A stretch of 64,000 nucleotides of DNA, taken from an uncultured Chloroflexia bacterium. Lineage in GTDB: Bacteria > Chloroflexota > Limnocylindria > Limnocylindrales > CSP1-4. The position numbers and the translations under genes are program-made. The stretch covers positions 135,214 through 199,213 of the forward strand of contig CAWDXT010000027.1 of the NCBI GenBank assembly GCA_963806265.1, written 5' to 3'. The notes under the pieces were generated by a model that saw nothing but the letters and a program-made list of their open reading frames with translations, was not told the origin of the DNA and ran no database searches. Positions 13,125-62,833 of this stretch are shown piece after piece (within the stretch, counting starts at the first letter, position 1; the number at the start of each line of letters is the position of its first letter).

Positions 13125-13228
13125 GCCCAGGTCAGTGGGAGGGAGGTGGGATTCGGAGCCCTGCGATGCCGCCGATCGAGGCGGCCCCGTCAAGCACAGC
13201 TACCACAGAGAAAGGAGGTGAGGACAGT

Positions 13229-48073: not shown

Positions 48074-48092
48074 CTCGATAATCGATGATCAG
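48074..48092. promoter_or_regulatory. Candidate operator C: the same heptad repeat, upstream of the SDR-MBL operon.
   Basis: CTCGATA ATCGATG ATCAG. It shares the exact 12-mer TCGATAATCGAT with operator A (62835-62846) and the exact 11-mer AATCGATGATC with operator B (62900-62910). Confidence 0.6.
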
Positions 48093-48891
48093 CGGAGGAA
48101 CGACGGTGCCCCTACTCGACAGGTTCAGGCTCGACGATCGCGTCGCCCTCATCGCCGGCGGCGGGGGCGCCATCGGGTCCGCGATCGGCACGGCGCTCGC
48201 GAGCGCCGGCGCCAGGGTGGTGGTCTGTGACCACTCGGAGGAGCGTGCACAGGCCGCGGCCGACCGGGTCTGCCGGGCCGGTGGCACCTGCCTGGGCGTC
48301 CATGCAGACGTGACCCGGGAGGCCGATGCCGAGCGGATCGTCAGGGAGGCCGTCGACGCGTACGGGCGCCTGGACATCATCGTCAACGCCGTCGGTGGCG
48401 GCGCCGGCAAGGTCCTGTTCGACGCGGAGGCCTACCCACGCGACGCATGGGACTGGATCATGGAGCTCAACGTCCGGAGCACGCTGGTCGCCACCCAGGC
48501 GGCGGTGCGCCAGATGATCGAGAGTGGCAACGGTGGCCGCGTGCTCAACATCTCGTCGGTCCGCGCCCTGCTGGGGATCAACGCCGGCTACTCCGCGTAT
48601 GTCGCCGCCAAGGGCGCGGTCGCCTCGCTGACCCGGCAATGGGCGACCGAGTGGGCGAAGCACGGCATCACGGTCAACGCGATCTCGCCCACGTTCGTCG
48701 ACACGCCGCAGGTGGCGATGCTGCTGGACGACCCGGCATTCAAGTCCGGCATCGAGAGCCGCATCCCGATCGGCCGGATCGGCACCACCGACGACCTGGT
48801 GGGCGCGGCGTTGTTCCTGTGCTCGGATGCGTCGTCGTTCATCACGGGCCAGATCCTGGGCATCGACGGCGGCCTGACCGCGACCCAGTAG
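48085..48891 (+). CDS. Short-chain dehydrogenase/reductase (SDR).
   Basis: ALIAGGGGAIGSAIG, NAVGG, YSAYVAAKGAV (YxxxK). GTG 48106, preceded by GGAGGA at 48094-48099, is the more likely start. Confidence 0.85.
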   Translation: MISGGTTVPLLDRFRLDDRVALIAGGGGAIGSAIGTALASAGARVVVCDHSEERAQAAADRVCRAGGTCLGVHADVTREADAERIVREAVDAYGRLDIIVNAVGGGAGKVLFDAEAYPRDAWDWIMELNVRSTLVATQAAVRQMIESGNGGRVLNISSVRALLGINAGYSAYVAAKGAVASLTRQWATEWAKHGITVNAISPTFVDTPQVAMLLDDPAFKSGIESRIPIGRIGTTDDLVGAALFLCSDASSFITGQILGIDGGLTATQ

Positions 48892-48956: not shown

Positions 48957-49874
48957 ATGCAGACGAGCATCGCGCTCGAGATGGAGCAGGTCACCGGCAA
49001 GGTGTTCACGAACACCCGGCTGCGGGGCTGCAACCCGAGCTTCGTGACCACCTCGGAGGGCGTCGTCGTGATCGACACGCCGCAGCTGCCGACCAAGGCG
49101 GTCGCCATGCGCCAGCTGGCCGAAACGCACGGACCCATCCGGTACCTGATCAACACCGAGCACCACGTCGACCACATCTTCGGCAACTACTTCTTCAAGG
49201 GCGCCGGCACGGTCGTCAACCACCGGGCCCTCTGGGAGCGGTTCATGGTGGTGTTCCCCGACCTCGACCCGTTCGCCTATGCGTACGAGTCGATCCCGGG
49301 CGACAACCCCAAGGGCACGGATCTCGACGATCCGGGCGCGGTGGACCTGTGGCCGGATCGCGACGAGTACTACGCGGATCCGAACAAGGGCAAGATCGTG
49401 TTCACCGGCGACCTGACGCTCCACGTCGGCGACCACACGTTCAACCTGCTGCACACGCCGGGCCACACCCCCGGCCAGCTCGCCGTCCACGTGCCCGAGG
49501 AGGGCGTCGTGTTCACGGGTGACACGATCTTCTCGGGCTGCCAGACCTGGCTCATGACCTCCGACGTGGCCCAGTGGCTCGACGCCCTGGAGCGGATCCG
49601 GACGCTCGACTTCGAGACGATCGTGCCGGGGCACGGACCGGTGGTCAGCAGGGACTACCTCGACGTCCAGCGCTCGGTGCTCATGGAGTGGAAGACGGCC
49701 GTCGCCACGGCGATCGCGAAGGGGTGGTCACGGGAGGAGACGATGGAGCGCGTCCACTTCCGCGACCGCTTCGGCCCCGTGGACATCGGGCAGGGCTACA
49801 TGATGGATCACATCCAGACCCTGAACGCGGCGTCGCTCTACGACAAGCTCACCGGGGCGATCCCCGGCGCCTGA
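48957..49874 (+). CDS. MBL-fold metallo-hydrolase.
   Basis: VVIDTPQ...LINTEHHVDHIFGN...LLHTPGHTPGQLAVHVPEEGVVFTGD...VPGHG. GGAGGA RBS lies at 48946-48951. Confidence 0.85.
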   Translation: MQTSIALEMEQVTGKVFTNTRLRGCNPSFVTTSEGVVVIDTPQLPTKAVAMRQLAETHGPIRYLINTEHHVDHIFGNYFFKGAGTVVNHRALWERFMVVFPDLDPFAYAYESIPGDNPKGTDLDDPGAVDLWPDRDEYYADPNKGKIVFTGDLTLHVGDHTFNLLHTPGHTPGQLAVHVPEEGVVFTGDTIFSGCQTWLMTSDVAQWLDALERIRTLDFETIVPGHGPVVSRDYLDVQRSVLMEWKTAVATAIAKGWSREETMERVHFRDRFGPVDIGQGYMMDHIQTLNAASLYDKLTGAIPGA

Positions 49875-49941: not shown

Positions 49942-52119
49942 CTACGCTCGGCCGGCAGCAACCTCGTCGGCCCGGTTTCGGCCGGCCAGTCGAATGAGGT
50001 CCTCGTGGAGCTCGAACCACACCGAGTGGTAGCTGTCCACCCGTGGTGACGCCACGAACCGGCCGTCACCGCCCTGGGCGGCCTCGTTGGCGCGGTCCAG
50101 CCGGGAGCGGTAGATGCGGAGCCGCGCCGGGCCTCCTTCGAGGCCATCGAGCCACGAACCGGCGTCGGCGTGGAGGGCGGCGAGGTCGGCCATGACGCTG
50201 GCGTCGTAGTCGGCGTCGCCGTGGTCGTTGAACACCTGCTCGCCGTCGATCTCGCGCATCTGCCAGGCCGTGACGGTGGCCTTCATGCGCTGGTCCATGG
50301 CGAGGAACGCGTCGAGCGCGGCGGCTGCTCGCTCGGCACCCCAGGCTGCCGCGTCCCCTGCCAGGCGCTCGCCGGCGGCAGACTTGCCGCGATCGGTCAG
50401 CCGGAACGAGCCGGCGGCTGCCTCCGCGAGCCCATCTGACACCAGGTCGTCGAGGAGTCCGGTCGCGGTTGCCTCGTCGCCGCCGATCGCGGCCGCGAGC
50501 GCGTCGGGCGCCGCATAGCCCTTGATCGCGAGCGCGCGAATGGCGGCGTCAAGCGGGTCGCCGTCGATCGCGCCCGGCTCGTCGGGCGCGGCCGTTGTCC
50601 GCGGGCTCACGGCGGCTGGCTCGGTCGCGGAGGCTGGCTGCTCGGTCGCGGAGGCCGCATCGATCTCGATCCCGAGCTCACGGGCCCAGGCCAGCAGCGT
50701 GGCCGCCTCGGGCACCACCTCGACCCGGCCCCCGACCGCGCCCTCGAACACGTCGCCGGTTGCGCCATCGATCGTGATCGTCTCGCCCGCGGCGAGACGC
50801 CGCCCGTCGATCTCGATGTGATCTCCCGACACCACCAGGTGAGAGGCTCCCACCACCGCGGGGATCCCCCAGCCGCGTGCAACCACCGCCGCGTGGCTGG
50901 CGAGGCCGCCGCTCGCGGTGAGGATCCCGGCCGCTCGCGCCATGCCGTGCACGTCGTCGGGCGAGGTCTCGGCCCGGACGAGGACCACGGCTCGGCCGGC
51001 GTCGGCGGCCTCGATCGCGCCATCGGGCGTGGTGACGATCTCGCCCGTGGCCACGCCGGGCGATGCCGGCAGGCCCCTGGCCAGCGGCACCGCATCATCG
51101 CGGCCGATCATCGTGGTCGGCGGATCGGCGAGGATGGCGGCGACACGCCGCACCGCCTCGTCGCGCGTCACCGGGAGCTCGTCATCCTCGGCCATGTCGC
51201 GCGCGATCCGGAGCGCAGCCTGGGGGCTGCGCTTGCCGACCCGGCACTGGAGCATCCACAGGCGCCCGTGCTCGACCGTGAACTCGATGTCGCACAGGTC
51301 CGCGTTGTGCCGCTCGAGCCGCGCCGCGTGCGCCCGCAGCTGCGCTGCCACGTCGGGCATCCGCTCGTCGAGGACCGCGAGCGGCTCGGTCTGATGGGCT
51401 CCCGCCACGACGTCCTCGCCCTGCGCATTGAACATGAAGTCGCCGTACGGCTCCGGGGCACCGGTAGCCGGGTTGCGCGTGAACAGGACCCCGGTGCCCG
51501 AGTCCACGCTGCGGTTCCCGAACACCATGGCCTGGACGGTGACCGCCGTGCCCAGCTCGTCCGGGATCCCCTCCCGCTGGCGGTAGGTGCGTGCCCGGGG
51601 GCTGTTCCAGGACCGGAACACGGCCTCGATCGCGCCCCGCAGCTGGACCCACGGGTCGGCCGGCACGTCGGCCACGCCCACGATCTCGCGGTACATGGCC
51701 TCGAACCGCTTGCGGCAGTTGGCGGCGAACTTCGGGCTCGACGCCCGATCGGCCAGACCGTCGGTGGTCGCGTCGTTGAGCCCGAGGTTGAGGATCGTGT
51801 CCATCATCCCCGGCATCGACACCGCGGCCCCGGAGCGCACGCTGACCAGCAGCGGGTCGGACGGGTCACCGAATCGATGGCCCACCACCTGCTCGATGTG
51901 CGTCATGTGCTCGCGCAGCTCCGCATCGAGGCCATCCGGCCAGCCATGCGCGAGGTACTCGTTGCAGGCGTGGGTGGAGATCGTGAACGCCGGCGGCACC
52001 GGCAGCCCGAGCTCGGCGGCCATGACCGACAGGTTCGCTGCCTTGCCTCCCAGCAACGACCTGACCTCCGCGAAGGTCATGTCGTCGAGGCGGTCGTCGC
52101 AGTCGAACACGTAGGTCAC
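49942..52119 (-). CDS. Pyruvate,phosphate dikinase-like protein. It has the ATP-grasp nucleotide domain and the swivel phospho-His domain, but the PEP/pyruvate TIM-barrel is replaced by an unrelated domain of about 200 aa.
   Basis: LLGGKAANLSVMAAELGLPVPPAFTIST...LLVSVRSGAAVSMPGMMDTILNLGLND...GTAVTVQAMVFGN...GTGVLFTRNP...GEDVVAG...IEFTVEHGRLWMLQCRVGKR. The swivel is TASGGLASHAAVVARGWGIPAVVG (His about residue 409). Residues about 520-725 (LAIKGYAAPDALAAAIGGDEATATGLLDDLVSDGLAE...WFELHEDLIRLAG) have no PPDK barrel motifs. Confidence 0.8.
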   Translation of the reverse strand: MTYVFDCDDRLDDMTFAEVRSLLGGKAANLSVMAAELGLPVPPAFTISTHACNEYLAHGWPDGLDAELREHMTHIEQVVGHRFGDPSDPLLVSVRSGAAVSMPGMMDTILNLGLNDATTDGLADRASSPKFAANCRKRFEAMYREIVGVADVPADPWVQLRGAIEAVFRSWNSPRARTYRQREGIPDELGTAVTVQAMVFGNRSVDSGTGVLFTRNPATGAPEPYGDFMFNAQGEDVVAGAHQTEPLAVLDERMPDVAAQLRAHAARLERHNADLCDIEFTVEHGRLWMLQCRVGKRSPQAALRIARDMAEDDELPVTRDEAVRRVAAILADPPTTMIGRDDAVPLARGLPASPGVATGEIVTTPDGAIEAADAGRAVVLVRAETSPDDVHGMARAAGILTASGGLASHAAVVARGWGIPAVVGASHLVVSGDHIEIDGRRLAAGETITIDGATGDVFEGAVGGRVEVVPEAATLLAWARELGIEIDAASATEQPASATEPAAVSPRTTAAPDEPGAIDGDPLDAAIRALAIKGYAAPDALAAAIGGDEATATGLLDDLVSDGLAEAAAGSFRLTDRGKSAAGERLAGDAAAWGAERAAAALDAFLAMDQRMKATVTAWQMREIDGEQVFNDHGDADYDASVMADLAALHADAGSWLDGLEGGPARLRIYRSRLDRANEAAQGGDGRFVASPRVDSYHSVWFELHEDLIRLAGRNRADEVAAGRA

Positions 52120-52183
52120 GGAAGGTCCTCCTCGCTGTGCGCACGACGCCGGTCGCCGACGGCCCCGTGCCCGGACACAGGCG

Positions 52184-53228
52184 TCACGGGTGGACGATGA
52201 TCTTGATCGCGTGCTGCCCCCGGTCGCCGAAGGTCTCGATCGCCGCCGGGTAGTCGGCGAGGTCGAAGGTGTGCGTGATCAGCTCGCGAACGCGCATCCG
52301 GCCCCCGACGATGAGCGGCATCACGTGGCGCATCTCGCCCGCCGACGCACGCGACCCGACCAGCTCGAGCTCGTCGAGCACCAGGCGCTGCAGGCCAAGC
52401 CCGACGTCGGTGGTCGGGATGCCCACCACGCGCGCAGCGGCCACCACGACGCAGCATGTCGAGCCCCCAGCGGATCGTCTCGGGCACCCCGGCGCACTCG
52501 AGGACGACGTCGACGCCCAGGCCACCGGTGCGTTCCCGGATCTCGGCCGCGGGATCGCCGGCCTCCGAGTCCACGATCTCGAAGCCGAGCTCGGCCGCCC
52601 GGGACAGTCGCCAGCCGCGGCCCACGACGATCACGCGCCCGGCCCCGCGAATGCGAGCCGCGTCCGCGGACAGCAGCCCGATCGAGCCGGCGCCGATGAT
52701 CGCGACCGTGTCACCCGGCCGGTTGCCGCCGCGGTTGGCGACGTGGAGCGCGATCGACGCCGGATCGACGAGGGCGCCCTCGTCGAACGAGAGCTCGTCG
52801 GGCAGCGGGAACACCGCCTTCACGCCGTGCACCACGTAGGTCGCGTCGGAGCCCTGGACGTTGTGCCCGTACTGGCGGTGCAGCCCTGGCTTGCCGTAGC
52901 TCTCGCACAGGTTGTAGCGGCCTTCGACGCACATCCGGCACACGCCGCACGCGTCGTGGCTGGTGCCCGCCACCCGGTCGCCGACCTTCCAGCCGTATCG
53001 CTCCGCGCCCGGACCCAGCGCGACCAGCTCACCGGCCCACTCGTGGCCCGGGATGAACGGGAACGACGGCGGCCAGAAGCCCGGATAGTCGCCGTGGATC
53101 AGGTGGACGTCGGTGCCGCAGATCGACACCGCCCGAACCCGGGCCATGACCTGGTCGCGGCCGGGGCTGGGGACCGGGACGTCCTGGATCTCGAGCCGCC
53201 CGGGCCCGGCGACGACCAGCGCCCGCAT
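52184..53228 (-). pseudogene. Zinc-dependent medium-chain alcohol/polyol dehydrogenase with one frame break near 52440.
   Basis: MRALVVAGPGRLEIQDVPVP...ICGTDVHL...GHEWAGELV...CGVCRMCVEGRYNLC...IIGAGSIGLL. It continues as VVGIPTTDVGLGLQRLVLDELELVGSRA...ITHTFDLADYPAAIETF in ORF 52184..52525. Confidence 0.85.
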
Positions 53229-53307
53229 CGTGCCCGGCGTGGGAGTTCCGGGCGTTGGGGTCTTGGGCGTAGGCCCTTCGGACGCGCTGGCTCCGGGCGT
53301 GGTCACG

Positions 53308-55572
53308 TCACGCCACCTCGCCCGTGCGGTCCCGCTCCTGGATGGCTCGCCACACGCGCTCCGGCGTGAGCGGCAGGTCACGGATCACGGCGCCGCACGC
53401 CTCGCGCACCGCGGCGGCCACGGCCGGCGCGGTGCACAGCAGCGCACCCTCGCTCATCCCCTTGGCACCGAACGGCCCCGGCCCGTCGGCGTTCTCGACC
53501 GTCTCGCTGACCATCTCGAGCGGCAGGTCCATCGAGGTCGGGATCCGGTAGTCGATGGCGCCCAGGTTCCGGATCCGTCCGGCATCGTCGTAGATGTAGT
53601 GCTCCATCAGGGTGTGACCGAGGCCCATGATCGCGGCCCCCTCGTCCTGCATCCGGACCTGGAGCGGGTTGATCGAGCGCCCCACGTCGGACACCGTCAC
53701 GTGCTTCACCAGCGTGACGTCGCCGGTGTCCTCGTCGACCCTCGCCTCGATCGCGGTGCAGTTGAACTCGAAGAACGCCGGAGCGCCGCCCAGCGGGTGA
53801 CCGGGCTCCGCCTCCTTGCGCGCCTCGCCGTTGCCGATCAGCTCGCCGCCCAGGCGACCGAGCCCCGGCTTGAGCACCTCGAGCACGGTGAGCTCCCGGT
53901 CCGGCAGGTGAATCACGCCACCCTCGACCGTGATCTGCGATTCGTCGAGCTCGTGGAGCCGCGCCGCCATCGCGCGCAGCTGTGCCTGGATCGAGCGGCA
54001 GGCGCTCAGGACGGCATTGCCCATGAGCACGGTCGAACGGCTGGCCGAGGTCTGCTGGTCGTAGGGCACGACCGCGGTGTCGCCCATGACCACCGTGACC
54101 CAGTCGAGCGGGGCGCCCAGCTCCTGGGCGGCGATCTGGGCCAGCACGGTCCGGGCCCCCTGGCCCATGTCGGAGGTGCCTGCGAACACGACCACGCTGC
54201 CGTCGGCGAGCAGCCGGACGGTCGAGTACGACAGGCCGGTCGTCGGGCCCGACTTGATGCCCACGGCGATCCCCCGCCCGTGGCCTGCCGGCAGGGGCGT
54301 GTCCCAGCCGATCAGCTCGGCTGCCTTCTGAACGCTCTGCTCCCACTCGCCGTCCGCGGGGGTGTCGAACGGGATGAAGGCATCGCCCCTGTGCGCGAGG
54401 TTCATCAGGCGCAGCTCGAGCCGGTCGATGCCCAGGGCGCGGGCACCCTCGTCGAGGTTCGACTCCACGCCCCAGTTCACCTGCGGGTAGCCAAAGCCGC
54501 GGAACGCGGTCGAGGGCGTGGTGTGCGAGAGCACGCTGCGGGCGGCGATCCGGGCGGCGGGCACGTTGTACGGGCCGCAGGCGGGATAGCTGCCCTTGCC
54601 CACCACCCGGTCCGCGATGTCCGCGTAGGCCCCGATCAGGTAGTCGGCCTTGATGTCCTGGAAGGCCAGCGTGCCGTCCGCCTGGAACCCGGTGCGGACG
54701 CGGACCTCGCACGCGGCGCGACGCACGGCCTGGAACGTCTGCTCCAGGGTCAGCACGAGGCGGACGGGTCGACCGGTGCGAAGCGCGGCGAACGCCACCA
54801 GCGGCTCGTACTTCGCGTGCTGCTTGCCGCCGAACCCGCCACCCGGGTCGGGAGCGATCACGCGCACCCGCGACAGCGGCAGGCGGAGCACCTCGGCGAT
54901 CACGCGCTGGAGCCAGTTCGGATGCTGGATCGAGCTCCAGACGCGGATGCCGTCCCCGTCCGGCGCGGCCATGAACGCGTGCGGCTCGATGGCGAACTGG
55001 GTGACCATCGGGAAGGTGTAGCTGTTGTCGATGACGAGGTCGGCCGTCGCCGCATCGACATCGCCCCATCCGACGCGGTGCTCGCGCAGGACGTTGGTCG
55101 CGGCCAGCGGATCGTCGGGACGCAGCGCCGGGTCCTGGACGAGCGGCGCATCCGGCGCGAGCGCGGCCGCGACCGTGAACACCGCCGGCAGCTCCTCGTG
55201 GTCGACCGCGACCAGGCCGGCCGCCTCCTCGGCCGCGTCTCTCGTGTCCGCGACCACGATCGCGACCGGGTCGCCGTGGTACTTGGTCTCGCCCACGGCG
55301 ATCACGGGCCGATCGGTGAACTGGGGACCGAAGCGCGGCACCGGCTGGGGCAGGTCGCCGGCGGTCAGGACCGCCCGGCAGCCGGGCACCCGTAGCGCAG
55401 CGGCGGTGTCGATCGCGTTGATACGAGCCCGGGCGACGTCGAGCGTCACGAGCTTCGCCTCGAGCATGTCCGTGGGGCGGATGTCGGCAACGTACGGCTG
55501 GGCGCCGGTCACCCGGCCGATCCCGCCGACCCGGTTGGGCGAGCTGCCGACGCGACCCTCGAGCACGCTCAT
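53308..55572 (-). CDS. Xanthine dehydrogenase-family molybdopterin-binding large subunit (CoxL/aldehyde-oxidase-like).
   Basis: RVTGAQPYVADI...AVGETKYHGDPVAIVVA...DPGGGFGGKQ...FRGFGYPQ...GTSDMGQGARTVLAQIAA...PFGAKGMSEGAL. There is no CODH-type VAYRCSFR loop. The start ATG 55572 overlaps the small-subunit stop. Confidence 0.9.
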   Translation of the reverse strand: MSVLEGRVGSSPNRVGGIGRVTGAQPYVADIRPTDMLEAKLVTLDVARARINAIDTAAALRVPGCRAVLTAGDLPQPVPRFGPQFTDRPVIAVGETKYHGDPVAIVVADTRDAAEEAAGLVAVDHEELPAVFTVAAALAPDAPLVQDPALRPDDPLAATNVLREHRVGWGDVDAATADLVIDNSYTFPMVTQFAIEPHAFMAAPDGDGIRVWSSIQHPNWLQRVIAEVLRLPLSRVRVIAPDPGGGFGGKQHAKYEPLVAFAALRTGRPVRLVLTLEQTFQAVRRAACEVRVRTGFQADGTLAFQDIKADYLIGAYADIADRVVGKGSYPACGPYNVPAARIAARSVLSHTTPSTAFRGFGYPQVNWGVESNLDEGARALGIDRLELRLMNLAHRGDAFIPFDTPADGEWEQSVQKAAELIGWDTPLPAGHGRGIAVGIKSGPTTGLSYSTVRLLADGSVVVFAGTSDMGQGARTVLAQIAAQELGAPLDWVTVVMGDTAVVPYDQQTSASRSTVLMGNAVLSACRSIQAQLRAMAARLHELDESQITVEGGVIHLPDRELTVLEVLKPGLGRLGGELIGNGEARKEAEPGHPLGGAPAFFEFNCTAIEARVDEDTGDVTLVKHVTVSDVGRSINPLQVRMQDEGAAIMGLGHTLMEHYIYDDAGRIRNLGAIDYRIPTSMDLPLEMVSETVENADGPGPFGAKGMSEGALLCTAPAVAAAVREACGAVIRDLPLTPERVWRAIQERDRTGEVA

Positions 55573-56135
55573 TGGTCCAACCCGTCCGCGCTGCTGCGCG
55601 CGCCGGCACGTGCGCCACCGGCGGTCGCGGCGGCGTCGACGGCCATCGTTCTGGAGGGGTCCACCGAGCCCGCAGCGACGGCCTGCACGGCCTCGGTGAT
55701 CTGCTCGTACCCGGCGCACCGGCACAGGTTGCCGGCCAGCCCTTCCTGGATCTGGTCGACCGTCGGGTCGGAGACGCGGCGCAGCAGGTCGTCCGCGGCC
55801 ATCAGCTGGCCCGGGATGCAGAAGCCGCACTGGGTAGCGCCGTAGTCGAGGAACGCCTGCTGGATCGGGGACAGCTGCCCGTCGGGACGGGCGAGGCCCT
55901 CGACCGTGGTGATCGCCCCACCGTCGGCTTCCACCGCGAGGACCAGGCACGAGTCGACGATGTGGTCGTTGAGCCGGACGGTGCACGCCCCGCACTCGCC
56001 GACCAGGCAGCACTCCTTGGTCCCGGTCAGCGCGAGGTCGTCGCGCAGGACCTCGAGCAGGGTATGGTGCGCGGCCACCTCGAGCGAGCGGACGCGTCCG
56101 TTCACGGTCATCTCGATCGGGATCAGCTCGGTCAT
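55569..56135 (-). CDS. (2Fe-2S)-binding small subunit of the molybdenum hydroxylase.
   Basis: TGTKECCLVGECGACTV...CLVLAVEADG...TQCGFCIPG...LCRCAGY. Confidence 0.9.
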   Translation of the reverse strand: MTELIPIEMTVNGRVRSLEVAAHHTLLEVLRDDLALTGTKECCLVGECGACTVRLNDHIVDSCLVLAVEADGGAITTVEGLARPDGQLSPIQQAFLDYGATQCGFCIPGQLMAADDLLRRVSDPTVDQIQEGLAGNLCRCAGYEQITEAVQAVAAGSVDPSRTMAVDAAATAGGARAGARSSADGLDQ

Positions 56136-57004
56136 CGTGCTCGCTCCTCGGCCGCCAGCCGGCTGGTCGCTGTCGCCAGCGCCCGCCAGCCGAGCACGCG
56201 CAGCATCGCGAGCCGGTAGTCGGGGCCGGCCCGCATCGAACGTGGGGACGGGCTGGCGTCGACGAACATGCGCTCCAGGATCGAGGCGCGGTCGACATCG
56301 GGCGCCGATGGGTCCGCGAGGACGCCCGTCGTGTCGGTGACCAGGAGCGGTCGCGGTCCGACGCTGCCGTAGGCGAGTCGCGTGACCCCGGCCGCATCGA
56401 CGCCACAGGCCAGCGTGACCGACGCCAGGTCGTGCCCACGGCGCCGCGTCCGCCGCTGGTGCGCCGAGCCCATGCGCGGCCAGTCGAGCGGCAGCTCGAT
56501 CGAGGTGACCAGCTCGCCACGCCCGAGCGTGGTCACGCCCGAGCGCACGAACAGCTCGTCGATCGGGATCCTGCGGCGGCCGTCGGGACCCGTCACCACG
56601 ACCTCGGCCCCGTAGACGAGCAGCGAGGGCGCGGTGTCCGCGGCGGGCGACGCGTTGCACAGGTTTCCGGCAAGCGTCGCGCGATTTCGGATCTGGACGG
56701 AGCCGACCACGGCGGCCGCCTCGGCCAGCGCCGTGAACCGGCGCCGGACCCGCACGTCGGCAGCGATGTCGGTCATCACCGTGGTTGCCCCGATCACCAG
56801 CCGCCCGTCAACCTCGCGGATCGCCGGATCGAGCTCGCGTATGCGCTTGACGTCGATCACGACCGACGGGCGGGCCGAGCCGTCCCGAAGCCGGATGATC
56901 AGGTCCGTGCCGCCCGCGATCAGCCGTGCGTCGGTGCCGTGCTCGGCGAGCAGGGCCACGGCGTCCGCCATGGCCCTGGGTCGCTGGTAGCTGAACGCCC
57001 GCAT
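56132..57004 (-). CDS. FAD-binding medium subunit of the molybdenum hydroxylase (CoxM-like).
   Basis: ARLIAGGTDLIIRL...IRNRATLAGNLCNASPAADTAP... Confidence 0.9.
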   Translation of the reverse strand: MRAFSYQRPRAMADAVALLAEHGTDARLIAGGTDLIIRLRDGSARPSVVIDVKRIRELDPAIREVDGRLVIGATTVMTDIAADVRVRRRFTALAEAAAVVGSVQIRNRATLAGNLCNASPAADTAPSLLVYGAEVVVTGPDGRRRIPIDELFVRSGVTTLGRGELVTSIELPLDWPRMGSAHQRRTRRRGHDLASVTLACGVDAAGVTRLAYGSVGPRPLLVTDTTGVLADPSAPDVDRASILERMFVDASPSPRSMRAGPDYRLAMLRVLGWRALATATSRLAAEERAR

Positions 57005-57015
57005 CGCCGCCGCTC

Positions 57016-57909
57016 CTACAGGATCCGATCGACCTCATCCAGGAGAACCTGGGGGGTCGCCGCGCGGATGAAGAAGAACGGCCGCTCGCAGAAGCTGGCC
57101 ACGAAGGCCGCGCGCCGCTGGCGCAGATGATCGTTGTCGAGCATCGGGATCACGTGCCCGGGCGCCAGCAGCTCGTTGGTCAGGAAGTAGTTCTGGAGGC
57201 TGTGCAGGAACTGGAACTGCGCCTCGAACGGGATCAGCTCGTTGGCCGCGGCATCGAAGTTGCCGTCGATGGCGGGCACGATGACCAGGTCGATGTTCGG
57301 CGCCTCGCCCTCGTACATCGCCCAGGTCGGCATCACCGGGCCCCAGAACTTCTCGACGCCCTTGTTGGGTGCGGCCTTGTCGGAGCGCTCGGTGCCCTCG
57401 GTGCGCTTGACGAGGAACGGCTCGACCGAGCCCATCACCGCCCGGCCGTCCTCGCTGACGACCGTGGTCTCCGAGGCAACCTGGAGCCCACCGCGAACGC
57501 CGGCCTCGATGAGGCCCATCGACTTGCCATGGTTGGACTCGCCGCCCAGGAACAGGAAGGTCCTGCCGCGGTACTGGACGGCTGCGCTGTGCGAGGGGTG
57601 GAGGCCCACGTCCTCCATGCGCAGCGCGAGGACCGCCACGATCACCTTCTGGAGGGGGCCCGCGGGCCAGGGCCCGGTGAACGTCACCGTCCGCCCGTCG
57701 TAGCGCACCGCCTTCTCGCCGTCCTGGTGCCACGTGATGTCCGGGGCCGCCAGCGTGATCTCGGGCGAGATCCGAACGTCGGCGAGGCGGTAGTTGAGGA
57801 ACGTCAGGTCGTCGAGCACGTGGTCACGGGGCGCGCCGCCGTAGACGTCCACGCGGAGGCGTGCGGCGCCGGCCGAGAACTCCTCCGTCAGTTGCAGCTG
57901 ATCGTTCAT
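57016..57909 (-). CDS. HPr kinase/phosphorylase C-terminal-domain-like P-loop protein.
   Basis: LHPSHSAAVQYRGRTFLFLGGESNHGKSMGLIEAGVRGGLQVASETTVV lines up with the HprK-type pattern H-A-S-x-V...G-x-S-G-x-GKS...G...L-V-x-D-D. The start ATG 57909 is chosen inside ORF 57016..58167. Confidence 0.6.
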   Translation of the reverse strand: MNDQLQLTEEFSAGAARLRVDVYGGAPRDHVLDDLTFLNYRLADVRISPEITLAAPDITWHQDGEKAVRYDGRTVTFTGPWPAGPLQKVIVAVLALRMEDVGLHPSHSAAVQYRGRTFLFLGGESNHGKSMGLIEAGVRGGLQVASETTVVSEDGRAVMGSVEPFLVKRTEGTERSDKAAPNKGVEKFWGPVMPTWAMYEGEAPNIDLVIVPAIDGNFDAAANELIPFEAQFQFLHSLQNYFLTNELLAPGHVIPMLDNDHLRQRRAAFVASFCERPFFFIRAATPQVLLDEVDRIL

Positions 57910-57952: not shown

Positions 57953-58705
57953 TCATGGGGCGGGCGCCGCCTGCCGGTCTCGCCGGTCACCGGCGGCCGG
58001 CCTGCGCGGCGGCGACGGTGGTCGCTGTGGCGCGAGCGGGGCCGTGGCGGCCGAGTCCCAGGCCGCCCGAAGACGGTCTGCCGTGGTGGCGAAGTGCTCG
58101 CGATACGTGCGATCGGCCTCGATCGGATCCCGGCGCCGGAGCGCGTCCAGGATCGGCTGGTGCTCATCGGCCACCGAGCGACGTTCCCCGCCCGGGACCG
58201 CGAGCGTGATGTACGTGCGTGACGACGGCTCGAGCGTGCGCCAAACGCGGTTCAGAGTCTGGTTGCCGGACAGGACGATCACGCGCCCGTGGAACTCGGC
58301 GTCGGCCGCCGCCTCGGCCCGCGCATCGCCGGCGTCGGCGGCTGCTCGCATCGCGGCGATCATCGCCTCGAGCCCGTCGATGTCCTTCTGTGTCAGATGC
58401 GGGATCGCGAGTCGAGCGCCGAGCGACTCGAGCTCGGCACGGATCGCGAACCCCTCGAGCAGCTCGTCCGTCGTGGGACGGCGGACGCGGGCTCCCCGGA
58501 AGGCCGTGGTCTCCACGACCCCCAGCGCCTCGAGGTCACGTAGTGCCTCGCGGACGGGCGCCTGGCTGGTGCCCAGGTCACGGGCGACCCGCGTCTCGAC
58601 GATCCGGTCTCCGGGCGCATAGCGGCCGTCGATGATCGCCTCCAGCAGGTGGTCCTTGACCTGGTCGCTCAGGACGCTGCGTGAGATCGAGGGCTGGGGG
58701 GGCAT
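57953..58705 (-). CDS. GntR-family transcriptional regulator (FadR/FCD subfamily).
   Basis: LSDQVKDHLLEAIIDGRYAPGDRIVETRVARDLGTSQAPVREALRDLEALGVVE (wHTH), followed by an all-helical FCD-like domain (EFHGRVIVLSGNQTL...ADEHQPILDAL). Confidence 0.85.
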   Translation of the reverse strand: MPPQPSISRSVLSDQVKDHLLEAIIDGRYAPGDRIVETRVARDLGTSQAPVREALRDLEALGVVETTAFRGARVRRPTTDELLEGFAIRAELESLGARLAIPHLTQKDIDGLEAMIAAMRAAADAGDARAEAAADAEFHGRVIVLSGNQTLNRVWRTLEPSSRTYITLAVPGGERRSVADEHQPILDALRRRDPIEADRTYREHFATTADRLRAAWDSAATAPLAPQRPPSPPRRPAAGDRRDRQAAPAP

Positions 58706-58715
58706 GATCGGCGCC

Positions 58716-60497
58716 CTAGGAACCGACGCCCACGAGCGGGCGGTCCGGAGCCGTTGACAGGATGGTGACGACACCCTTCCTGGGGTTGCTGGCGTCGACC
58801 CGGATCCGGTCCCCGGTCTTGATGCGCGTGGTCCCCATCGAGGTGCCGACGACGGCAGGGATGCCGTACTCGCGCGCCAGGACGGCCGGATGGGACGCGG
58901 TGCCGCCGGCGTCGGTCACCACCGCGATGATCTTGCCGTACAGCACCTGCCAGGCCGGGTTGGTCATCTCGCACACCAGGATCTCCCCGTCCTGCAGGCC
59001 GTCGAACTCGCTCTCGGACAGGACGACGCGGGCGACCCCTTCGATCACGCCGGGAGACCCGGCGATGCCTTCGACCGTGTCCTGCTGTCCTTCGGCCGAG
59101 CGATGGAACTTCTCGGGGAAGCCCCACAGACCGAGGTACGGGAACGCCAGCTGGGTCTCGGTCGCCGTGCCGACCCAATCGCGCGGACGCGTCCGCTCCG
59201 CCTCGGCGCGCCTGGCCCGCGCCGCAGCGACGATCGCGCGGCCGTCGATCCCGGTCGGATCGCCGATGAACGCTCGCAGCTCGTTGTAGTGGAACATGAT
59301 CACGTCGTCGGGGCGGTCGAGCACCCCCATGTCGACCAGCTTCTCGCCGAGCGCGATGAGCACCAGGCGGACGTGCGCGTTGGCACCCTGGTCGATGTAG
59401 AAGTGATGGTCCGGCGTGAGCGGCGCCATCCGAAGGTTGATCTCGTTGGCGGCGCGCATCTCCTCGAGCGCCTCACCCTCGAGCCCCTCGAGGATCTCCG
59501 TGGCCGCCGCGTCGATGTCGGCCTTCAGCTTCGCAACGGCGCGCGGATAGTCGTAGCCCGACGCGTACTGGTCGCGGACGAGCTGGATCACCGGCGTCAT
59601 GTCCTCCCGGAAGCTGGGGAAGATGAACTCGTGGCTCCAGACGGCGTGCCAGCCGAACTCGTTCTGATACGGCACCACCCGCTCGTCGATGAAGCGGCGA
59701 CCCCTGTCGCTGGCCTTGAGCGCCGGGATGATCTCGACCGCGGACGGGCTCCCGAACGCCGCCGCGAGCTCGGCGTCCGCCTTGACCTCCTCCTTCATCT
59801 CCCACAACGCCCGGATCTTGTCCCAGTTGCGGTCGCTCGCCGATGCCTGCAGCCGGCCCAGGAGGACCTCGTCGATGCTGCCATGGGTCTTCTCCATGAC
59901 CGCCCGGAGGTTGAGGGTGGCGCTCAGCTGCGCGAAGTTCAGCATCCAGTGGATCTTCCAGTGGCGATCGTGCATGTCGATCGCGTCCTCGAGCAGGACC
60001 GCGACCTCCGCGAGGCTCATCTCGTCCTTTCGATCGAGCATGCTCTCGAGGTAGTCGAAGTTGCGCTGCATCTCGGGCACGAACCGCGTCCGCCACCACT
60101 CGACGAACCGTTGGCCGTAGACGGGCAGGACCGCGCCGAGGTAGGCCCCGATCCGTCCCGCGTACGCATCGTCCCGGGGCACGATCGCCCGAGTGGCAAG
60201 GTCGTACTCCTGGGTCACGACCTCGAGGCCGTTCTCGGCAGGGATCGCCGCCGTGTACAGGTAGCCGTTGACGTTCTTGTAGATCCAGTCCGTCGCGAAC
60301 GGCGTCCCGAAGCGCCGGAACATGTGGTCGCAGCTCAGCCACCAGCCACCGATGTCCTCGTACATCGGGCTCAGCGGCTTGGGGCAGTGGAGATCGTCGT
60401 AGACCCAGAACAGGAGCTGCTCGGTCTCCGACGACCATTCGATGGGGAACGACGCATCCCCCAGGAACTGGTCGAGGACTTTCTCCTTCAGGGGCAC
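58716..60497 (-). CDS. PEP-utilising-enzyme mobile (swivel phospho-His) domain protein with a helical N-terminal region of about 450 aa and unknown function.
   Basis: C-terminus GVIEGVARVV...GEILVCEMTNPAWQVLYGKIIAVVTDAGGTASHPAVLAREYGIPAVVGT. The N-terminal region has no ATP-grasp motifs. The overall layout recalls the His-carrying subunit of phenylphosphate-synthase-type enzymes. Confidence 0.7.
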   Translation of the reverse strand: MPLKEKVLDQFLGDASFPIEWSSETEQLLFWVYDDLHCPKPLSPMYEDIGGWWLSCDHMFRRFGTPFATDWIYKNVNGYLYTAAIPAENGLEVVTQEYDLATRAIVPRDDAYAGRIGAYLGAVLPVYGQRFVEWWRTRFVPEMQRNFDYLESMLDRKDEMSLAEVAVLLEDAIDMHDRHWKIHWMLNFAQLSATLNLRAVMEKTHGSIDEVLLGRLQASASDRNWDKIRALWEMKEEVKADAELAAAFGSPSAVEIIPALKASDRGRRFIDERVVPYQNEFGWHAVWSHEFIFPSFREDMTPVIQLVRDQYASGYDYPRAVAKLKADIDAAATEILEGLEGEALEEMRAANEINLRMAPLTPDHHFYIDQGANAHVRLVLIALGEKLVDMGVLDRPDDVIMFHYNELRAFIGDPTGIDGRAIVAAARARRAEAERTRPRDWVGTATETQLAFPYLGLWGFPEKFHRSAEGQQDTVEGIAGSPGVIEGVARVVLSESEFDGLQDGEILVCEMTNPAWQVLYGKIIAVVTDAGGTASHPAVLAREYGIPAVVGTSMGTTRIKTGDRIRVDASNPRKGVVTILSTAPDRPLVGVGS

Positions 60498-60576: not shown

Positions 60577-61416
60577 TCAGTGCGCCGGGGGCGCGGCGCG
60601 CGTGATCATCTTGAAGCGCTGCATGTTCTCGGTGATCGCCACCTCCGTCGGGAGCCGCTCCATGCTCGAGGCGCCGAAGAACCCGGCCACACCGTTCGTA
60701 TGGTCGAGGATGAACTGCGCGTCATCCGGCTCCGCGATCGGGCCACCGTGGCAGAGCACGATGACGTCCGGGTTGACCGCCACCGCAGCATCCCGGATCG
60801 CCTGCACCCGCTCGGCCGACGCCCCGAGCGTGAGCGCGGTGGTGGCACCGATCGCGCCCTTGGTGGTCAGGCCCATGTGGGCCACGACGACGTCGGCCCC
60901 TGCCCCGGTCATCGCCGTCGCCTGCTCCGGGTCGAACACGTAGGGCGTCGTGAGCAGCCCGGCGGCATGCGCCGCTCGGATCATCTCGACCTCGAGCCCG
61001 TAGCCCATGCCGGTCTCCTCGAGGTTCTGGCGGAACTGCCCGTCGCACAGGCCAACCGTCGGGAAGTTCTGGACGCCGGAGAAGCCGACCCGTCTGATCT
61101 CTTCGAGGAACACCGGCATCAGCCGGAACGGATCGGTGCCGCACACGCCGGCCAGCACGGGCGTCTCGCGAACGACGGGCAGCACCTCGCCCGCCATCTC
61201 CATCACGATCGCGTTGGCGTCGCCATAGGGCATCATCCCGGCCAGGGATCCCCGGCCGGCCATCCGGTAGCGACCCGAGTTGTAGATGATGATCAGGTCG
61301 GCGCCGCCGGCCTCGGCACATTTCGCCGACAGCCCGGTCCCGGCACCCGCACCCATGATCACGCCGCCATCGGCGAGCGTCCTCCGCAGCCGCGCGAGCG
61401 CCTCCTGGCCGGTCAT
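60577..61416 (-). CDS. PEP-hydrolase-like TIM-barrel protein (TIM-br_sig_trns family; Tm-1 C-terminal-domain homologue).
   Basis: [51 protein letters not shown]...[12 protein letters not shown]...[11 protein letters not shown]...[12 protein letters not shown] 61416 overlaps the upstream stop (ATGA). Confidence 0.75.
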
Positions 61417-62672
61417 GCTCCTCCTCCATGGATCGAGGCCGTGGCCGGATGAGTCTCCGACCACGCCCGGTACAGCTCGTCGAGCCGGTCCGCCATCGCT
61501 CCTGCAAACGCCGGGTCGTTGATGTCGGTCGCCATCTCGACCACCTCGACGTCCCCGCGGAGACCGGCCCTGAGCTCCCTGACCAGCGCCGCATCGGCGG
61601 CCGGGTCGTGGAACGGCGCATCGGGCACGTCGATCATCGACACGCCGGCCGTCGGGATGAACACCGCCAGCGGACCGCCCGCGGCGTTGAGCTTGCGGGC
61701 CAGGATGCGACCCAGCTCGGCACATTCCGCCTCGGTGGTCCGCATCAACGTGACGGACGCGTTGTGGCGATACAGGTTGCGGTCGCGGAACCGGTCGGGG
61801 ACCGTGTCGAGCGGCCCGAAGTTGACCATGTCCAGCGCGCCCAGCGACACCACCTGGGGCAGCCCCAGCGCTCCGGCGGCCTCCAGCCGGTCGGGCCCGG
61901 CCGACAGCACGCCGCCCACGAGCTCGTCGGCCAGCTCGGTGGTCGTGATGTCGAGCGCCCCCGTGATGAACCCGGCGCGCATCAGCGCCTCCATCGCCTG
62001 GCCACCGGCACCCGTGGCGTGGAACACCAGCACCTCGTAGCCGCGCGCCTCGAGGAGCTCGCGCGCGACCGTGACGCATGGCGTCGTGACGCCGAACATG
62101 GTCGCGCCGATGAGCGGCCTGCCGGGAGCCTGCGTGCCGCGCGACGATGCCGAGCGTGCCATGCCTGCGATCGCGGCCGCGGCATTGTCCAGGATCCGCT
62201 CGGAGATCGCGTTGAGGCCCGCGATATCGACCACCGAGTACAGCATCGCGATGTCGCTGGTGCCGACGTAGGCGCGCGTGTCGCCCGAGGCCATCGTCGA
62301 CACGAGCAGCTTCGGGACGCCGATCGGCAGAGCCCGCATCGCGGCCGAGATGAGCGACGAGCCTCCCGACCCACCGAGACCCACGATCCCGTCGAGCCGA
62401 CCCTCGGCGTGGAGCCGTCGCGCAACCTCCACCGCGCCCCGGGTCATCGCCTCGACGGCCGGGCCACGGTCGCCCGCCGCGGCCAGCGCTGCCCGGTTCT
62501 CGCCCGCGGCGGCTGCCACCGCGTCGGCCGTGATGTCGGCACCCGTCGATGACCCCATCACGCCCGCGTCGACGACGAGCGCGTCGCAGCCGAGCTCGCG
62601 GATCCGGTCGCGGAGGAACTCGTGCTCGGCAGCCTTGGTGTCGAGCGTTCCGAGGACCACGACGACCGCCAT
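61413..62672 (-). CDS. UPF0261 family protein (Tm-1 N-terminal-like ATP-binding domain).
   Basis: [24 protein letters not shown]...[34 protein letters not shown]...[12 protein letters not shown]...[16 protein letters not shown]...[16 protein letters not shown]. Confidence 0.75.
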
Positions 62673-62833
62673 TCGCCACCTTTCCCCGCACGATCCGGCC
62701 CGGCCGGGCCCCGCCTGCGGCACACGTTCGGGCACCCTCGCAGCGCCTGCGCCCCCGGCCCCGGGCACCGAACGCAGCCGTCCGGGCCGGGTGCCTTGCT
62801 GCCGGGTCCTCGGCGCGCTGGTACCCTCGTGAC

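Follow-up and report, generated by a model that had tools for sequence, protein, structure and literature searches.

The nearest described relative of the gene examined here is VadK (Rv1127c) of Mycobacterium tuberculosis, a barrel-less 'truncated PPDK' whose operonic partner is Rv1126c (PMC13400623, EMBO Rep 2026). VadK undergoes ATP- and Mg-dependent autophosphorylation on a swivel histidine, His422; its solubility is raised by Rv1126c, and separating the two proteins takes 2 M NaCl (PMC13400623). It has been described as a stand-alone, virulence-linked, non-canonical regulatory histidine kinase: Rv1126c was removed before the assays and given no function, the published model invokes binding to PrpC/PrpD and no small-molecule acceptor, and VadK has no known phosphoryl acceptor (PMC13400623). 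Deletion of vadK leaves transcription of the methylcitrate-cycle genes of M. tuberculosis unchanged (PMC13400623). In TnSeq data, Rv1126c and ppdK receive the same essentiality calls in seven conditions, and a mycobactin-toxicity class is common to Rv1126c, ppdK, Rv2047c and pks12; Rv2047c comprises an epimerase domain and a swivel domain (PMC7058343).

Also pertinent are the two-component dikinases HpeHI, PpsAB and CreHI, in which one protein holds the acceptor-binding and swivel domains and another the ATP-grasp domain; the ATP-grasp-only partner charges the acceptor half directly, with no His-to-His relay, and HpeHI-type dikinases need low concentrations of Mn2+ (PMC12167813). Swapping of the acceptor domain is the rule in this superfamily, as in RPH, glucan water dikinase and PpsA (PMC4844700, PMC12167813).

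The stretch of DNA that we analysed (64,000 nt; hereafter, the window) yielded a single ATP-grasp domain, which lies in a gene that continues, in one open reading frame, into a C-terminal module that we call the tail:

49942..52119, minus strand: the fusion gene; 725 aa, GTG start, TAG stop; ATP-grasp, swivel-His, linker and tail
51100..52119, minus strand: PPDK-type ATP-grasp (nucleotide-binding) domain, residues 1-340 (Pfam PPDK_N, E 1.5e-46)
50662..51099, minus strand: swivel phospho-His domain and the conserved helix after it, residues 341-486 (Pfam PEP-utilizers, E 1.1e-22)
50893..50895, minus strand: codon of the catalytic His409, within GGLASH409AAVVARGWGIPAVVG
50563..50661, minus strand: disordered low-complexity linker, residues 487-519 (33 aa; rich in Ala/Pro/Thr/Ser; AF2 pLDDT <50)
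49945..50562, minus strand: codons of residues 520-725, the 206-aa tail
50395..50562, minus strand: first part of the tail, a degenerate winged helix, residues 520-575 (tail 1-56)
49945..50394, minus strand: second part of the tail, a helical bundle with a beta-hairpin, in which nearly all the family invariants lie; residues 576-725 (tail 57-206)

A fusion residue number is the tail number plus 519. The ATP-grasp domain aligns with C. symbiosum PPDK (1ggo/1kbl) at E ~1e-122, and AF2 models the swivel-His region (341-486) confidently. The motif GGLASHAAVVARGWGIPAVVG is found in the 725-aa fusion, with its histidine at residue 409; by family alignment this residue should match the autophosphorylating His422 of VadK. 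The fusion scores 525.2 bits against the NCBIfam model for short PPDK (NF004531, PRK05878; cutoff 456), which covers residues 15-466, and its 523.9 bits against canonical PPDK (TIGR01828) are below that model's cutoff of 843.45. Alignments to solved PPDKs end at about residue 480-498, and a Pfam scan of the fusion finds no PEP/pyruvate TIM barrel. These results uphold much of a preliminary description of this DNA, which had placed a phospho-His at about residue 409, followed by a Pro/Ala/Thr linker and then, instead of the barrel, a C-terminal domain of about 200 aa: the histidine is 409 exactly, the linker occupies residues 487-519, and the barrel gives way to the conserved 206-aa tail. The same description had mentioned short, barrel-less PPDK-like proteins from mycobacteria, of which VadK is one (PMC13400623). 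The linker shows no conservation among 72 fused relatives, in which it measures 20-55 aa (median 27) and is rich in Ala/Pro/Gly/Asp. Being a single ORF, the window gene is not of the stand-alone short-PPDK form (~480-560 aa) that has a separate ~200-aa partner gene, and an exact-sequence lookup returned no record of the 725-aa protein.

AF2 models the tail with high confidence (pLDDT 96.9, pTM 0.91) as a winged helix (tail numbering: H3-14, H19-26, H30-42, E46-49, E52-55) followed by a helical bundle (pLDDT >90). A winged helix had indeed been proposed for the first part, and it is this part that finds structural neighbours: Foldseek aligns it locally with MarR/DtxR/GntR winged helices (64-80 columns, rmsd 1.4-2.8 Å), and the family profile matches PDB sequences of IdeR/MntR-type winged helices (E 5e-4 at best, to 0.1) over positions 9-74 only. 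Foldseek, suggested in the preliminary description and run against the PDB, aligned only the winged helix and gave nothing at E<=1e-3; the helical bundle has no PDB match by fold (Foldseek), nor by sequence profile past position 74. Pfam and NCBIfam contain no significant match to the tail. HTH family matches all fall below curated cutoffs (the best, HVO_A0261_N, has 17.7 bits versus 35); in per-member Pfam scans, MarR_2 and HTH_IclR matches are sub-threshold, and DUF6586 is weakly matched in 8 of 53 members.

Twenty-six positions, rich in His/Asp/Glu/Arg/Lys, are invariant across tail-family members at 32-68% identity, nearly all of them in the helical bundle. They are present in full in the window protein, by construction of the alignment, and are retained in free actinobacterial tails. 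Residues invariant in 38 diverse members are K613, W619, Q620, N631, H633, D635, Y638, R666, D695 and S696, together with Y697, H698, W701, F702, E703, H705, E706, R716 and E719. Column entropy averages 0.82 bits over tail residues 166-206 and 2.1 bits over the winged helix. In the window protein, the C-terminal family motifs read K..VT.WQ, NDHxDxxYD and P..DSYH..WFELHE[DE]L; NDHxD and DSYHTVWFELHE are tail motifs. The preliminary description had not remarked that conservation sits in the bundle rather than in the winged helix.

A winged helix invites the idea of a DNA-binding output, by which the protein would be a one-component, phosphorylation-controlled transcription factor. The fold is there (AF2, Foldseek), and some free members carry 'MarR family transcriptional regulator' labels. 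However, the putative recognition helix has 0 of 13 columns conserved and is acidic, its net charge averaging -2.1 and being zero or negative in 97% of members; the average over the whole module is -10.7. Furthermore, the HTH matches are all sub-threshold, the gene cluster already has a GntR/FCD regulator, and methylcitrate-cycle transcription is indifferent to vadK deletion (PMC13400623). Because the winged helix is variable and acidic, the tail is unlikely to read DNA, and we regard the transcription-factor reading as very improbable. The preliminary description had envisaged a regulatory or docking role, for example phosphorylation-dependent binding of DNA or of a partner: docking or partner binding is plausible, and the DNA-binding element of that proposal is not supported.

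The same fold could instead belong to a regulatory or metal-binding accessory, DtxR/MntR-like with its DNA binding lost, that senses a metal or a metabolite or delivers Mn2+. Such a tail would switch or stimulate the dikinase as the 24-kDa PpsC does phenylphosphate synthase; Schmeling et al. 2004 reportedly observed that a small third protein stimulates the latter enzyme. The winged helix is nearest to the Fe/Mn-dependent repressors IdeR, DR2539 and MntR (E 5e-4 to 0.03; Foldseek), its combination with a His/Asp/Glu-rich helical domain resembles the layout of those regulators, and HpeHI-type dikinases are Mn2+-dependent (PMC12167813). On the other hand, the similarity to DtxR/MntR ends at position ~74, their metal-ligand positions are not aligned with the tail invariants, and regulation alone fails to account for the tail's association with two swivel domains, described below. 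We consider an accessory of this kind doubtful.

The tail is a real, widespread conserved module and not an assembly artefact. A word-index search recovers 640 homologues at E<=1e-3 (best 7.7e-80), and an exhaustive search 1,867 representative clusters at E<=1e-3. Protein lengths are bimodal, at ~200 and ~705-800 aa, and the tail is C-terminal in all. A rival reading is that a frameshift or misassembly merged a short PPDK gene with the one that follows it: in its favour, the window has at least one frameshifted gene (the Zn-dependent alcohol dehydrogenase listed below), and some relatives in long-read MAGs (L001, L002) are two gene calls with frame changes. The comparative data refute this reading, to which we attach practically no weight, because in-frame fusion is recurrent: an unbroken ORF joins His domain and tail in 72 of 82 related loci, Nocardia included, and these are independent genomes that span several phyla and sequencing platforms; of the 150 best representative proteins, 22-26 are fused as well. 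The check for a frameshifted or misassembled 3' end that the preliminary description had proposed thereby excludes that error. L001 and L002 were considered as natural two-gene forms and rejected, as their PPDK-N matches lie in more than one frame or in another frame than the tail; given the mixed reading frames in these long-read MAG loci, indel errors are likely. Some database pipelines name free tail members 'MarR family transcriptional regulator'.

Four architectures are found, in which the tail is either free or directly after a swivel-His domain. The first, ATP-grasp-His-tail, is that of the window and the majority form outside Actinomycetes. The second is a free ~200-aa tail gene beside or near a short PPDK gene (Mycobacterium, Gordonia, Nocardia): the tail gene directly follows the short PPDK gene in M. 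parmense and Mycobacterium sp. 1164966.3 (tails of 201-204 aa), and the two are ~2 kb apart in loci L081 and L091. The third, X-His-tail, places the tail on a different, RPH/HpeH-like half-enzyme; in locus L088, an X-His-tail gene is followed by an overlapping, tail-less ATP-grasp-His gene of 479 aa. The fourth, X-His-ATP-grasp-His-tail, is a single 1,256-aa polypeptide in locus L089. X-His-tail proteins keep 26 of the 26 invariants, and each of two triple fusions keeps 23. Fully separate genes also occur: tail, ATP-grasp-His and X-His are three consecutive genes in a gammaproteobacterium (L090), and all three lie inside 6 kb in Nocardia farcinica (L092). A PPDK-type half comprising ATP-grasp and swivel His accompanies the tail in every architecture and locus examined; this barrel-less half is fused to the tail, or at most ~2.2 kb away, in all loci with enough flank.

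In the window, an X-His protein (X-His593) is encoded 6.6 kb upstream of the fusion, in the same cluster:

58716..60497, minus strand: X-His593; RPH/HpeH-like acceptor-binding region and swivel-His domain (His536), without ATP-grasp
57953..58705, start approximate, minus strand: GntR/FCD transcription regulator of the cluster (Pfam GntR, FCD); position conserved
57016..57909, start approximate, minus strand: conserved protein of ~297 aa with no family match; homologue in 38 of 82 loci
56132..57004, minus strand: Mo-hydroxylase FAD subunit, CoxM-like (Pfam FAD_binding_5, CO_deh_flav_C); 55 of 82 loci
55569..56135, start approximate, minus strand: Mo-hydroxylase 2Fe-2S subunit, CoxS-like (Pfam Fer2, Fer2_2)
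53308..55572, minus strand: Mo-hydroxylase molybdopterin subunit, CoxL/XdhA-like, 754 aa (Pfam Ald_Xan_dh_C, MoCoBD_1, MoCoBD_2)
52116..53381, minus strand: Zn-dependent alcohol dehydrogenase (Pfam ADH_N, ADH_zinc_N); 28 of 82 loci
48957..49874, plus strand: metallo-beta-lactamase-fold hydrolase (Pfam Lactamase_B), convergent with the fusion gene; 42 of 82 loci
48085..48891, plus strand: short-chain dehydrogenase/reductase (Pfam adh_short_C2); 47 of 82 loci

Upstream of X-His593 are genes for a UPF0261 protein and a PEP-hydrolase-like protein. The molybdopterin subunit, whose NCBIfam matches are all below cutoff, recurs in 57 of 82 loci, mostly directly upstream of the fusion gene; the alcohol dehydrogenase is apparently frameshifted near 52500, its C-terminal part going on in the ORF at 52184-52525; and the L002 equivalent of the ~297-aa protein has 295 aa and no Pfam match. 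In X-His593, residues 502-570 match Pfam PEP-utilizers, NCBIfam matches are to PRK08296/PigC/RedH/RPH-like entries, and the similarity to RPH structures (5fbs/5hv1) reaches E 8e-23. Both catalytic histidines of the window, His409 in the fusion and His536 in X-His593, are retained, and no HpeI-like ATP-grasp-only gene is present near X-His593. An X-His gene is found in 36 of the 82 related loci (7 of 7 where the flank suffices), and it adjoins the fusion gene even where loci are rearranged. It accompanies tail and ATP half in Chloroflexota-type clusters and in the sampled Nocardia, gammaproteobacterial and fused loci; none lies within 7-9 kb in Mycobacterium, Gordonia, three Nocardia fusions and some Acidimicrobiia loci. 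The tail's free form, its second half-enzyme carrier and the partner 6.6 kb upstream are all additions to the preliminary description.

That the tail travels with a second half-enzyme suggests a machine of three parts for phosphate transfer and not a regulator that binds DNA. We hypothesize that a split swivelling-His dikinase has the tail as its dedicated third module, which does not bind DNA and couples the two swivel-His domains, and we hold this to be an evenly balanced proposition. The first part would be the PPDK-derived, VadK-type half (residues 1-486), with ATP-grasp and its own swivel His. The second would be the RPH/HpeH-like X-His593, contributing acceptor binding and another swivel His but no ATP site. 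The third would be the tail, in which a degenerate winged helix precedes a bundle with a putative pocket of invariant His/Asp/Glu/Arg/Lys; a floppy linker tethers it behind one of the swivel-His domains, or it is supplied as a free ~200-aa subunit. ATP bound at the ATP-grasp domain would charge His409; the tail would then dock the charged swivel domain and link it with His536, the second swivel His, on the acceptor half. In doing so it would serve as a docking platform or carry the phosphoryl group transiently, probably with the help of a divalent metal. Finally, the acceptor half would phosphorylate a small hydroxylated molecule that may be made or used by the neighbouring Mo-hydroxylase catabolic cluster; this catabolic gene context is suggestive of ATP-dependent phosphorylation of a phenolic or hydroxylated small molecule by the paired system, with AMP as a product. 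The two-component dikinases are a precedent for such a system (PMC12167813), and the M. tuberculosis data agree with it, namely the tight association of Rv1126c with VadK (PMC13400623) and the TnSeq phenotype common to Rv1126c, ppdK, Rv2047c and pks12 (PMC7058343). Several considerations weigh against a split dikinase: known two-component dikinases manage without a His-to-His relay (PMC12167813), many loci have no X-His gene inside 7-9 kb, and the published VadK model invokes PrpC/PrpD binding (PMC13400623). In addition, the AF2 model of His domain, linker and tail, though confident within the domains, has a disordered linker and a pTM of 0.60 and so provides no reliable inter-domain geometry.

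The chief alternative is that the tail is a replacement acceptor or catalytic domain that takes the phosphoryl group directly from His409, as the PPDK barrel does, independently of X-His; the acceptor would be a small molecule or water bound by the tail. The tail does occupy the barrel's place directly after the swivel domain, it has numerous invariant residues (polar, His, Arg, Lys) of the kind typical of an active site, many actinobacterial loci have short PPDK and tail only with no X-His nearby, and acceptor swapping is usual in the superfamily (PMC4844700, PMC12167813). Yet the tail is also found behind X-His swivel domains that already have an RPH-like acceptor-binding domain, and a disordered tether of 20-55 aa differs from the rigid helical linkers that place the PPDK barrel. 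We judge a replacement domain unlikely.

The split-dikinase reading can be carried over to mycobacteria if Rv1126c, which we take to be 201 aa long, belongs to the tail family. We infer that it does from its gene position and length, which are like those of the M. parmense and Mycobacterium sp. 1164966.3 tails, and from its co-purification and shared TnSeq phenotype with VadK; a word-index search seeded with mycobacterial tail homologues returned no M. tuberculosis protein among its best 120 matches. A more speculative proposal, which we advance only tentatively, has two elements that stand together. The tail would relay the phosphoryl group, or act as the coupling station, between two swivelling-His domains, which would amount to a three-part, PTS-like His-to-His phosphorelay in a metabolic small-molecule dikinase; and one split dikinase would likewise be assembled in M. 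tuberculosis from VadK as ATP half, Rv1126c as tail and Rv2047c as acceptor half. If so, the trio would act on a small molecule or lipid, such as the mycoketide alcohol of mannosyl-phosphomycoketide, Rv2047c, in an operon with pks12, would be the acceptor half, and VadK would not be a protein-regulating histidine kinase.

Seen in this light, VadK-type enzymes would not be simply truncated: their barrel appears to have been swapped for a conserved ~200-aa module, fused in most lineages and a separate subunit, most likely Rv1126c, in mycobacteria. The ATP half and the tail usually travel with an RPH/HpeH-like acceptor half, which provides a concrete biochemical hypothesis for VadK, in which it would operate together with Rv1126c and an X-His partner, for example Rv2047c. 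The tail itself defines a new domain family; its representative clusters, about 1,900 in number, are at present mis-annotated as "PPDK" or "MarR regulator".

The comparison with known systems is as follows. The fusion shares with canonical PPDK the ATP-grasp and swivel domains and a conserved catalytic His motif; unlike canonical PPDK, it has no PEP/pyruvate TIM barrel, and it cannot synthesize PEP by known chemistry. Residues 1-486 resemble VadK in having ATP-grasp and swivel His, in lacking a barrel and in passing NF004531. In contrast to VadK/Rv1126c, the ATP half and the tail form one polypeptide, and the gene is in a Mo-hydroxylase catabolic cluster instead of beside prp genes. With DtxR/IdeR/MntR and MarR regulators, the tail has in common a winged-helix fold over its first ~70 residues with a weak sequence signal, and with T. 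acidophilum IdeR (4o5v) a 'KGYAT' motif; unlike those regulators, its recognition helix is acidic and unconserved, its remainder finds no match among them, and it occurs as part of an enzyme or alongside one. X-His593 and the X region of X-His-tail proteins match the RIF-binding and swivel regions of rifampin phosphotransferase (RPH) and PigC/RedH, and the triple fusions, like RPH, unite ATP-grasp, acceptor and swivel domains in a single chain; RPH, however, has one swivel domain at its extreme C-terminus, no tail, and an ATP-grasp of PEP-synthase rather than PPDK type (PMC4844700). As in HpeHI, CreHI and PpsAB, the acceptor-binding and swivel-His half is separate from the ATP-grasp protein, the genes are sited in a cluster for the catabolism of aromatic compounds, and the predicted chemistry is that of a swivelling-His dikinase. 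The ATP-grasp partner in those systems is a ~40-kDa RPH-type protein without His domain or tail, whereas here the ATP half is PPDK-type, with its own swivel His and a tail. Because that half brings its own catalytic swivel His, the window system has two swivel domains, and the two-component dikinases of aromatic catabolism would thus gain a double-swivel variant, one widespread in soil Chloroflexota.

The subject here is the C-terminal part (the 'tail') of a protein that otherwise comprises a PPDK-type ATP-grasp, a swivel domain with the catalytic histidine, and a linker (together with the tail, the 'fusion'):

49942..52119, minus strand: fusion ORF, 725 aa
49945-50562, minus strand: tail, last 206 residues of the fusion

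Pfam recognizes two domains in the fusion, PPDK_N (E 1.5e-46) and, for the swivel, PEP-utilizers (E 1.1e-22), and finds no PEP/pyruvate barrel. The NCBIfam short-PPDK model NF004531/PRK05878 covers residues 15-466, with 525 bits against a cutoff of 456; the protein fails the canonical PPDK model (524 bits; cutoff 843). Alignments to solved PPDKs (E ~1e-122) stop at about residue 480-498, and the linker, rich in Ala, Pro, Thr and Ser, spans residues 487-519. The tail itself has no significant match in Pfam or NCBIfam. The preliminary description of a protein whose barrel has given way to some 200 C-terminal residues of unknown type was accurate; its estimate for the catalytic His, about residue 409, is exact.

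A search using the tail alone returned 640 homologues at E<=1e-3 (top 7.7e-80). When each species was represented by a single genome, a scan placed relatives in at least 581 genomes, mostly Chloroflexota (Limnocylindria-type), Acidimicrobiia and Dormibacterota; those of Nocardia, Nocardioides and Mycobacterium are ~40-43% identical. The closest relative, 82% identical, is that of a Chloroflexia MAG (L003). An exhaustive profile search yielded 1,867 representative clusters (429 of them at E<=1e-30), in which protein lengths have maxima at ~200 and ~705-800 aa, and the tail invariably forms the C-terminus. The family's motifs include NDHxD and DSYHTVWFELHE. A frameshifted or misassembled 3' end, raised earlier as a possible origin of the tail, is ruled out: the frame stays open between His domain and tail, with no stop, in 72 of 82 loci, and the few split loci lie in long-read MAGs and show frame changes that resemble indel errors. 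The tail is thus a conserved module, not an artefact, and it represents a widespread, uncharacterized domain family. Database labels for the free tail proteins of ~200 aa (P0001-P0275) are inconsistent, being 'pyruvate, orthophosphate dikinase' at JGI and 'MarR family transcriptional regulator' or 'hypothetical protein' at NCBI and UniRef; none reflects a tested function.

AlphaFold2 modelled the tail, from a 53-sequence alignment, with a pLDDT of 96.9 and a pTM of 0.91: a winged helix (tail residues 3-55) is followed by long helices, a β-hairpin (102-111) and further helices to the C-terminus. Foldseek gave no PDB match at E<=1e-3; its top matches, which were limited to the winged helix, were MarR, DtxR/IdeR/MntR, GntR and O-methyltransferase dimerization domains, and a family-profile search of PDB sequences aligned only positions 9-74 (top E 5e-4). 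The 38 members compared (32-68% identical) share 26 invariant positions, of which only G15 does not lie downstream of the winged helix; G59 is just past it, and others include K94, W100, Q101, N112, H114, D116, Y119, R147, D176, S177, Y178, H179, W182, F183, E184, H186, E187, R197 and E200. This pattern is the inverse of that in DNA-binding proteins. Furthermore, no column is conserved in the putative recognition helix, whose net charge averages -2.1; for the whole module the average is about -10. We therefore reject DNA reading, which had been proposed for the tail, as its main function, and consider DNA binding unlikely. Our rejection fits the report that deletion of vadK, which encodes the barrel-less short PPDK of Mycobacterium tuberculosis (Rv1127c/ppdK), leaves transcription of methylcitrate-cycle genes unchanged (PMC13400623).

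The window also encodes the partner half-enzyme of the fusion, X-His593, an RPH/HpeH-like acceptor-binding and swivel-His protein that lacks an ATP-grasp (we refer to its counterparts elsewhere as X-His); the only ATP-grasp in the window is that of the fusion. Among the neighbouring genes are:

52116-53381, minus strand: Zn-dependent alcohol dehydrogenase (Zn-ADH), apparent frameshift near 52500
57016-57909, minus strand: conserved protein of ~297 aa, between the GntR/FCD regulator and CoxM
58716-60497, minus strand: X-His593, swivel His536, RPH match at E 8e-23
~60577-61416, minus strand: PEP-hydrolase-like TIM-barrel protein, PF09370 at E 1e-129
61413-62768, minus strand: UPF0261 protein, PF06792 at E 1e-64 and PF23189 at E 3e-94

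The minus-strand order is X-His593, GntR/FCD regulator, ~297-aa protein, CoxM-, CoxS- and CoxL-like genes (subunits of a Mo-hydroxylase), Zn-ADH and fusion gene, on which MBL-fold hydrolase and SDR genes converge from the opposite side. Around the fusion gene, CoxL recurs in 57/82 loci, CoxM and CoxS in 55/82, SDR in 47/82, MBL in 42/82 and X-His in 36/82, this last count being held down by flank length; X-His is present in 7/7 loci with enough sequence past CoxM, and in rearranged loci it still adjoins the fusion gene. The actinobacterial loci lack the window-type cluster. The ~297-aa protein has no match in Pfam or NCBIfam, and its homologues (up to 91% identical) occur in 38/82 loci. As to the Zn-ADH, ORF 52184-52525 continues it to its true C-terminus, and an out-of-frame Arg/Pro-rich stretch closes the called ORF. 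Either the gene is a pseudogene or the assembly has an indel here; the frameshift suggests that the window derives from an error-prone (long-read MAG) assembly. The UPF0261 gene and then the PEP-hydrolase-like gene (60577-62768) lie directly upstream of X-His593; homologues of the two occur with the fusion gene at just ~6/82 loci. UPF0261 is the family of tomato Tm-1 and of MarK, which was recently described as an ATP-dependent aromatic kinase (PMC12624787).

We assigned architecture classes to the best 150 of the family's representatives.

Architectures among the best 150 representatives
Tail only (fragments or free-standing proteins): 103
ATP-grasp(-His)-tail: 26
His-tail: 18
X-His-ATP-grasp-His-tail (triple fusion): 2

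Among the 18 His-tail proteins, seven, 651-783 aa long, lack an ATP-grasp and carry in front an RPH/PigC/PRK06241-like region of ~330-450 aa. This region, X, is similar to the part of rifampin phosphotransferase and related enzymes that binds the acceptor. The tail therefore sits after the swivel-His domains of two different half-enzymes. All 26 invariants are kept in the X-His-tail proteins, and 23 of the 26 in each triple fusion; linkers are 20-55 aa (median 27), of low complexity and unconserved. The parts are also variously divided among genes: an X-His-tail gene followed by an overlapping, tail-less ATP-grasp-His gene (479 aa; L088), a single 1,256-aa protein with all parts within an aromatic-catabolism cluster (L089), three consecutive genes in a gammaproteobacterium (L090), and three parts inside 6 kb in Nocardia farcinica (L092). 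At this last locus, which holds short PPDK and X-His genes, a His_Phos_1 (histidine-phosphatase superfamily) gene adjoins the tail gene divergently (6308-6886). In the gammaproteobacterium, a molybdopterin oxidoreductase of the DMSO-reductase family is encoded beside the three-module system (11276-13474); in our Chloroflexota window that place is taken by the CoxLMS enzyme, of the xanthine-dehydrogenase family (53308-57004). These different molybdoenzymes by phylum hint at a recurrent functional partnership between the dikinase and Mo-dependent oxidation.

The tail bears directly on the function of VadK, which autophosphorylates at His422; its 'operonic partner' Rv1126c raises VadK solubility and needs a 2 M NaCl wash for its removal, and was given no function and no place in the VadK working model (PMC13400623). 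In M. parmense and Mycobacterium sp. 1164966.3, a tail homologue (204 or 201 aa) directly follows the short PPDK, and we infer that Rv1126c belongs to the tail family. M. pinniadriaticum (L081, 4422-9355) and Gordonia terrae (L091, 3362-8367) represent an alternative layout, conserved in some Actinomycetes, in which GntR/FCD and acyl-CoA dehydrogenase genes separate short PPDK from tail gene, and an enoyl-CoA hydratase gene follows; this pair has an acyl-CoA-type context, and no X-His gene was found nearby. Published genetics fit the VadK-Rv1126c pairing: TnSeq calls for Rv1126c equal those for ppdK in seven conditions (NE, ES, GD, NE, NE, ES, NE), and both genes fall with Rv2047c and pks12 into one mycobactin-toxicity class, with a 'high MBT/low MBT' requirement (PMC7058343). 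This suggests that VadK/Rv1126c is functionally linked to the pks12-rv2047c (mycoketide) operon, a link discussed in neither PMC13400623 nor PMC7058343. Rv2047c combines an NAD-epimerase domain with a swivel 'PEP-utilizing' domain, and no ATP-grasp is described (PMC7058343). The top NCBIfam match of one X-His-tail protein (P0353), far below the model's cutoff, is NF004520/PRK05865, a 'sugar epimerase family protein' model of 854 aa with a swivel domain at its end. Its architecture matches that published for Rv2047c, on which we presume the model was built.

In every case examined, the tail is accompanied by a VadK-type ATP-grasp and swivel-His half, and there are two swivel domains per system wherever an X-His gene is also seen. 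These associations favour a coupling or relay role. The mechanism that we infer is one in which the tail would dock the charged swivel domain and would then hand it on to the second swivel domain; an AlphaFold2 construct gave no usable inter-domain geometry. Two alternatives are live: the tail could be a self-contained acceptor site, or its role could be purely regulatory. Returning to coupling or relay, our preferred reading is of a double-swivel split dikinase with the tail as its third module. In the established two-component dikinases HpeHI, CreHI and PpsAB, an ATP-grasp-only protein charges a separate acceptor-binding and swivel protein; here, in contrast, the ATP half derives from PPDK and retains a catalytic swivel His of its own, and the tail is added.
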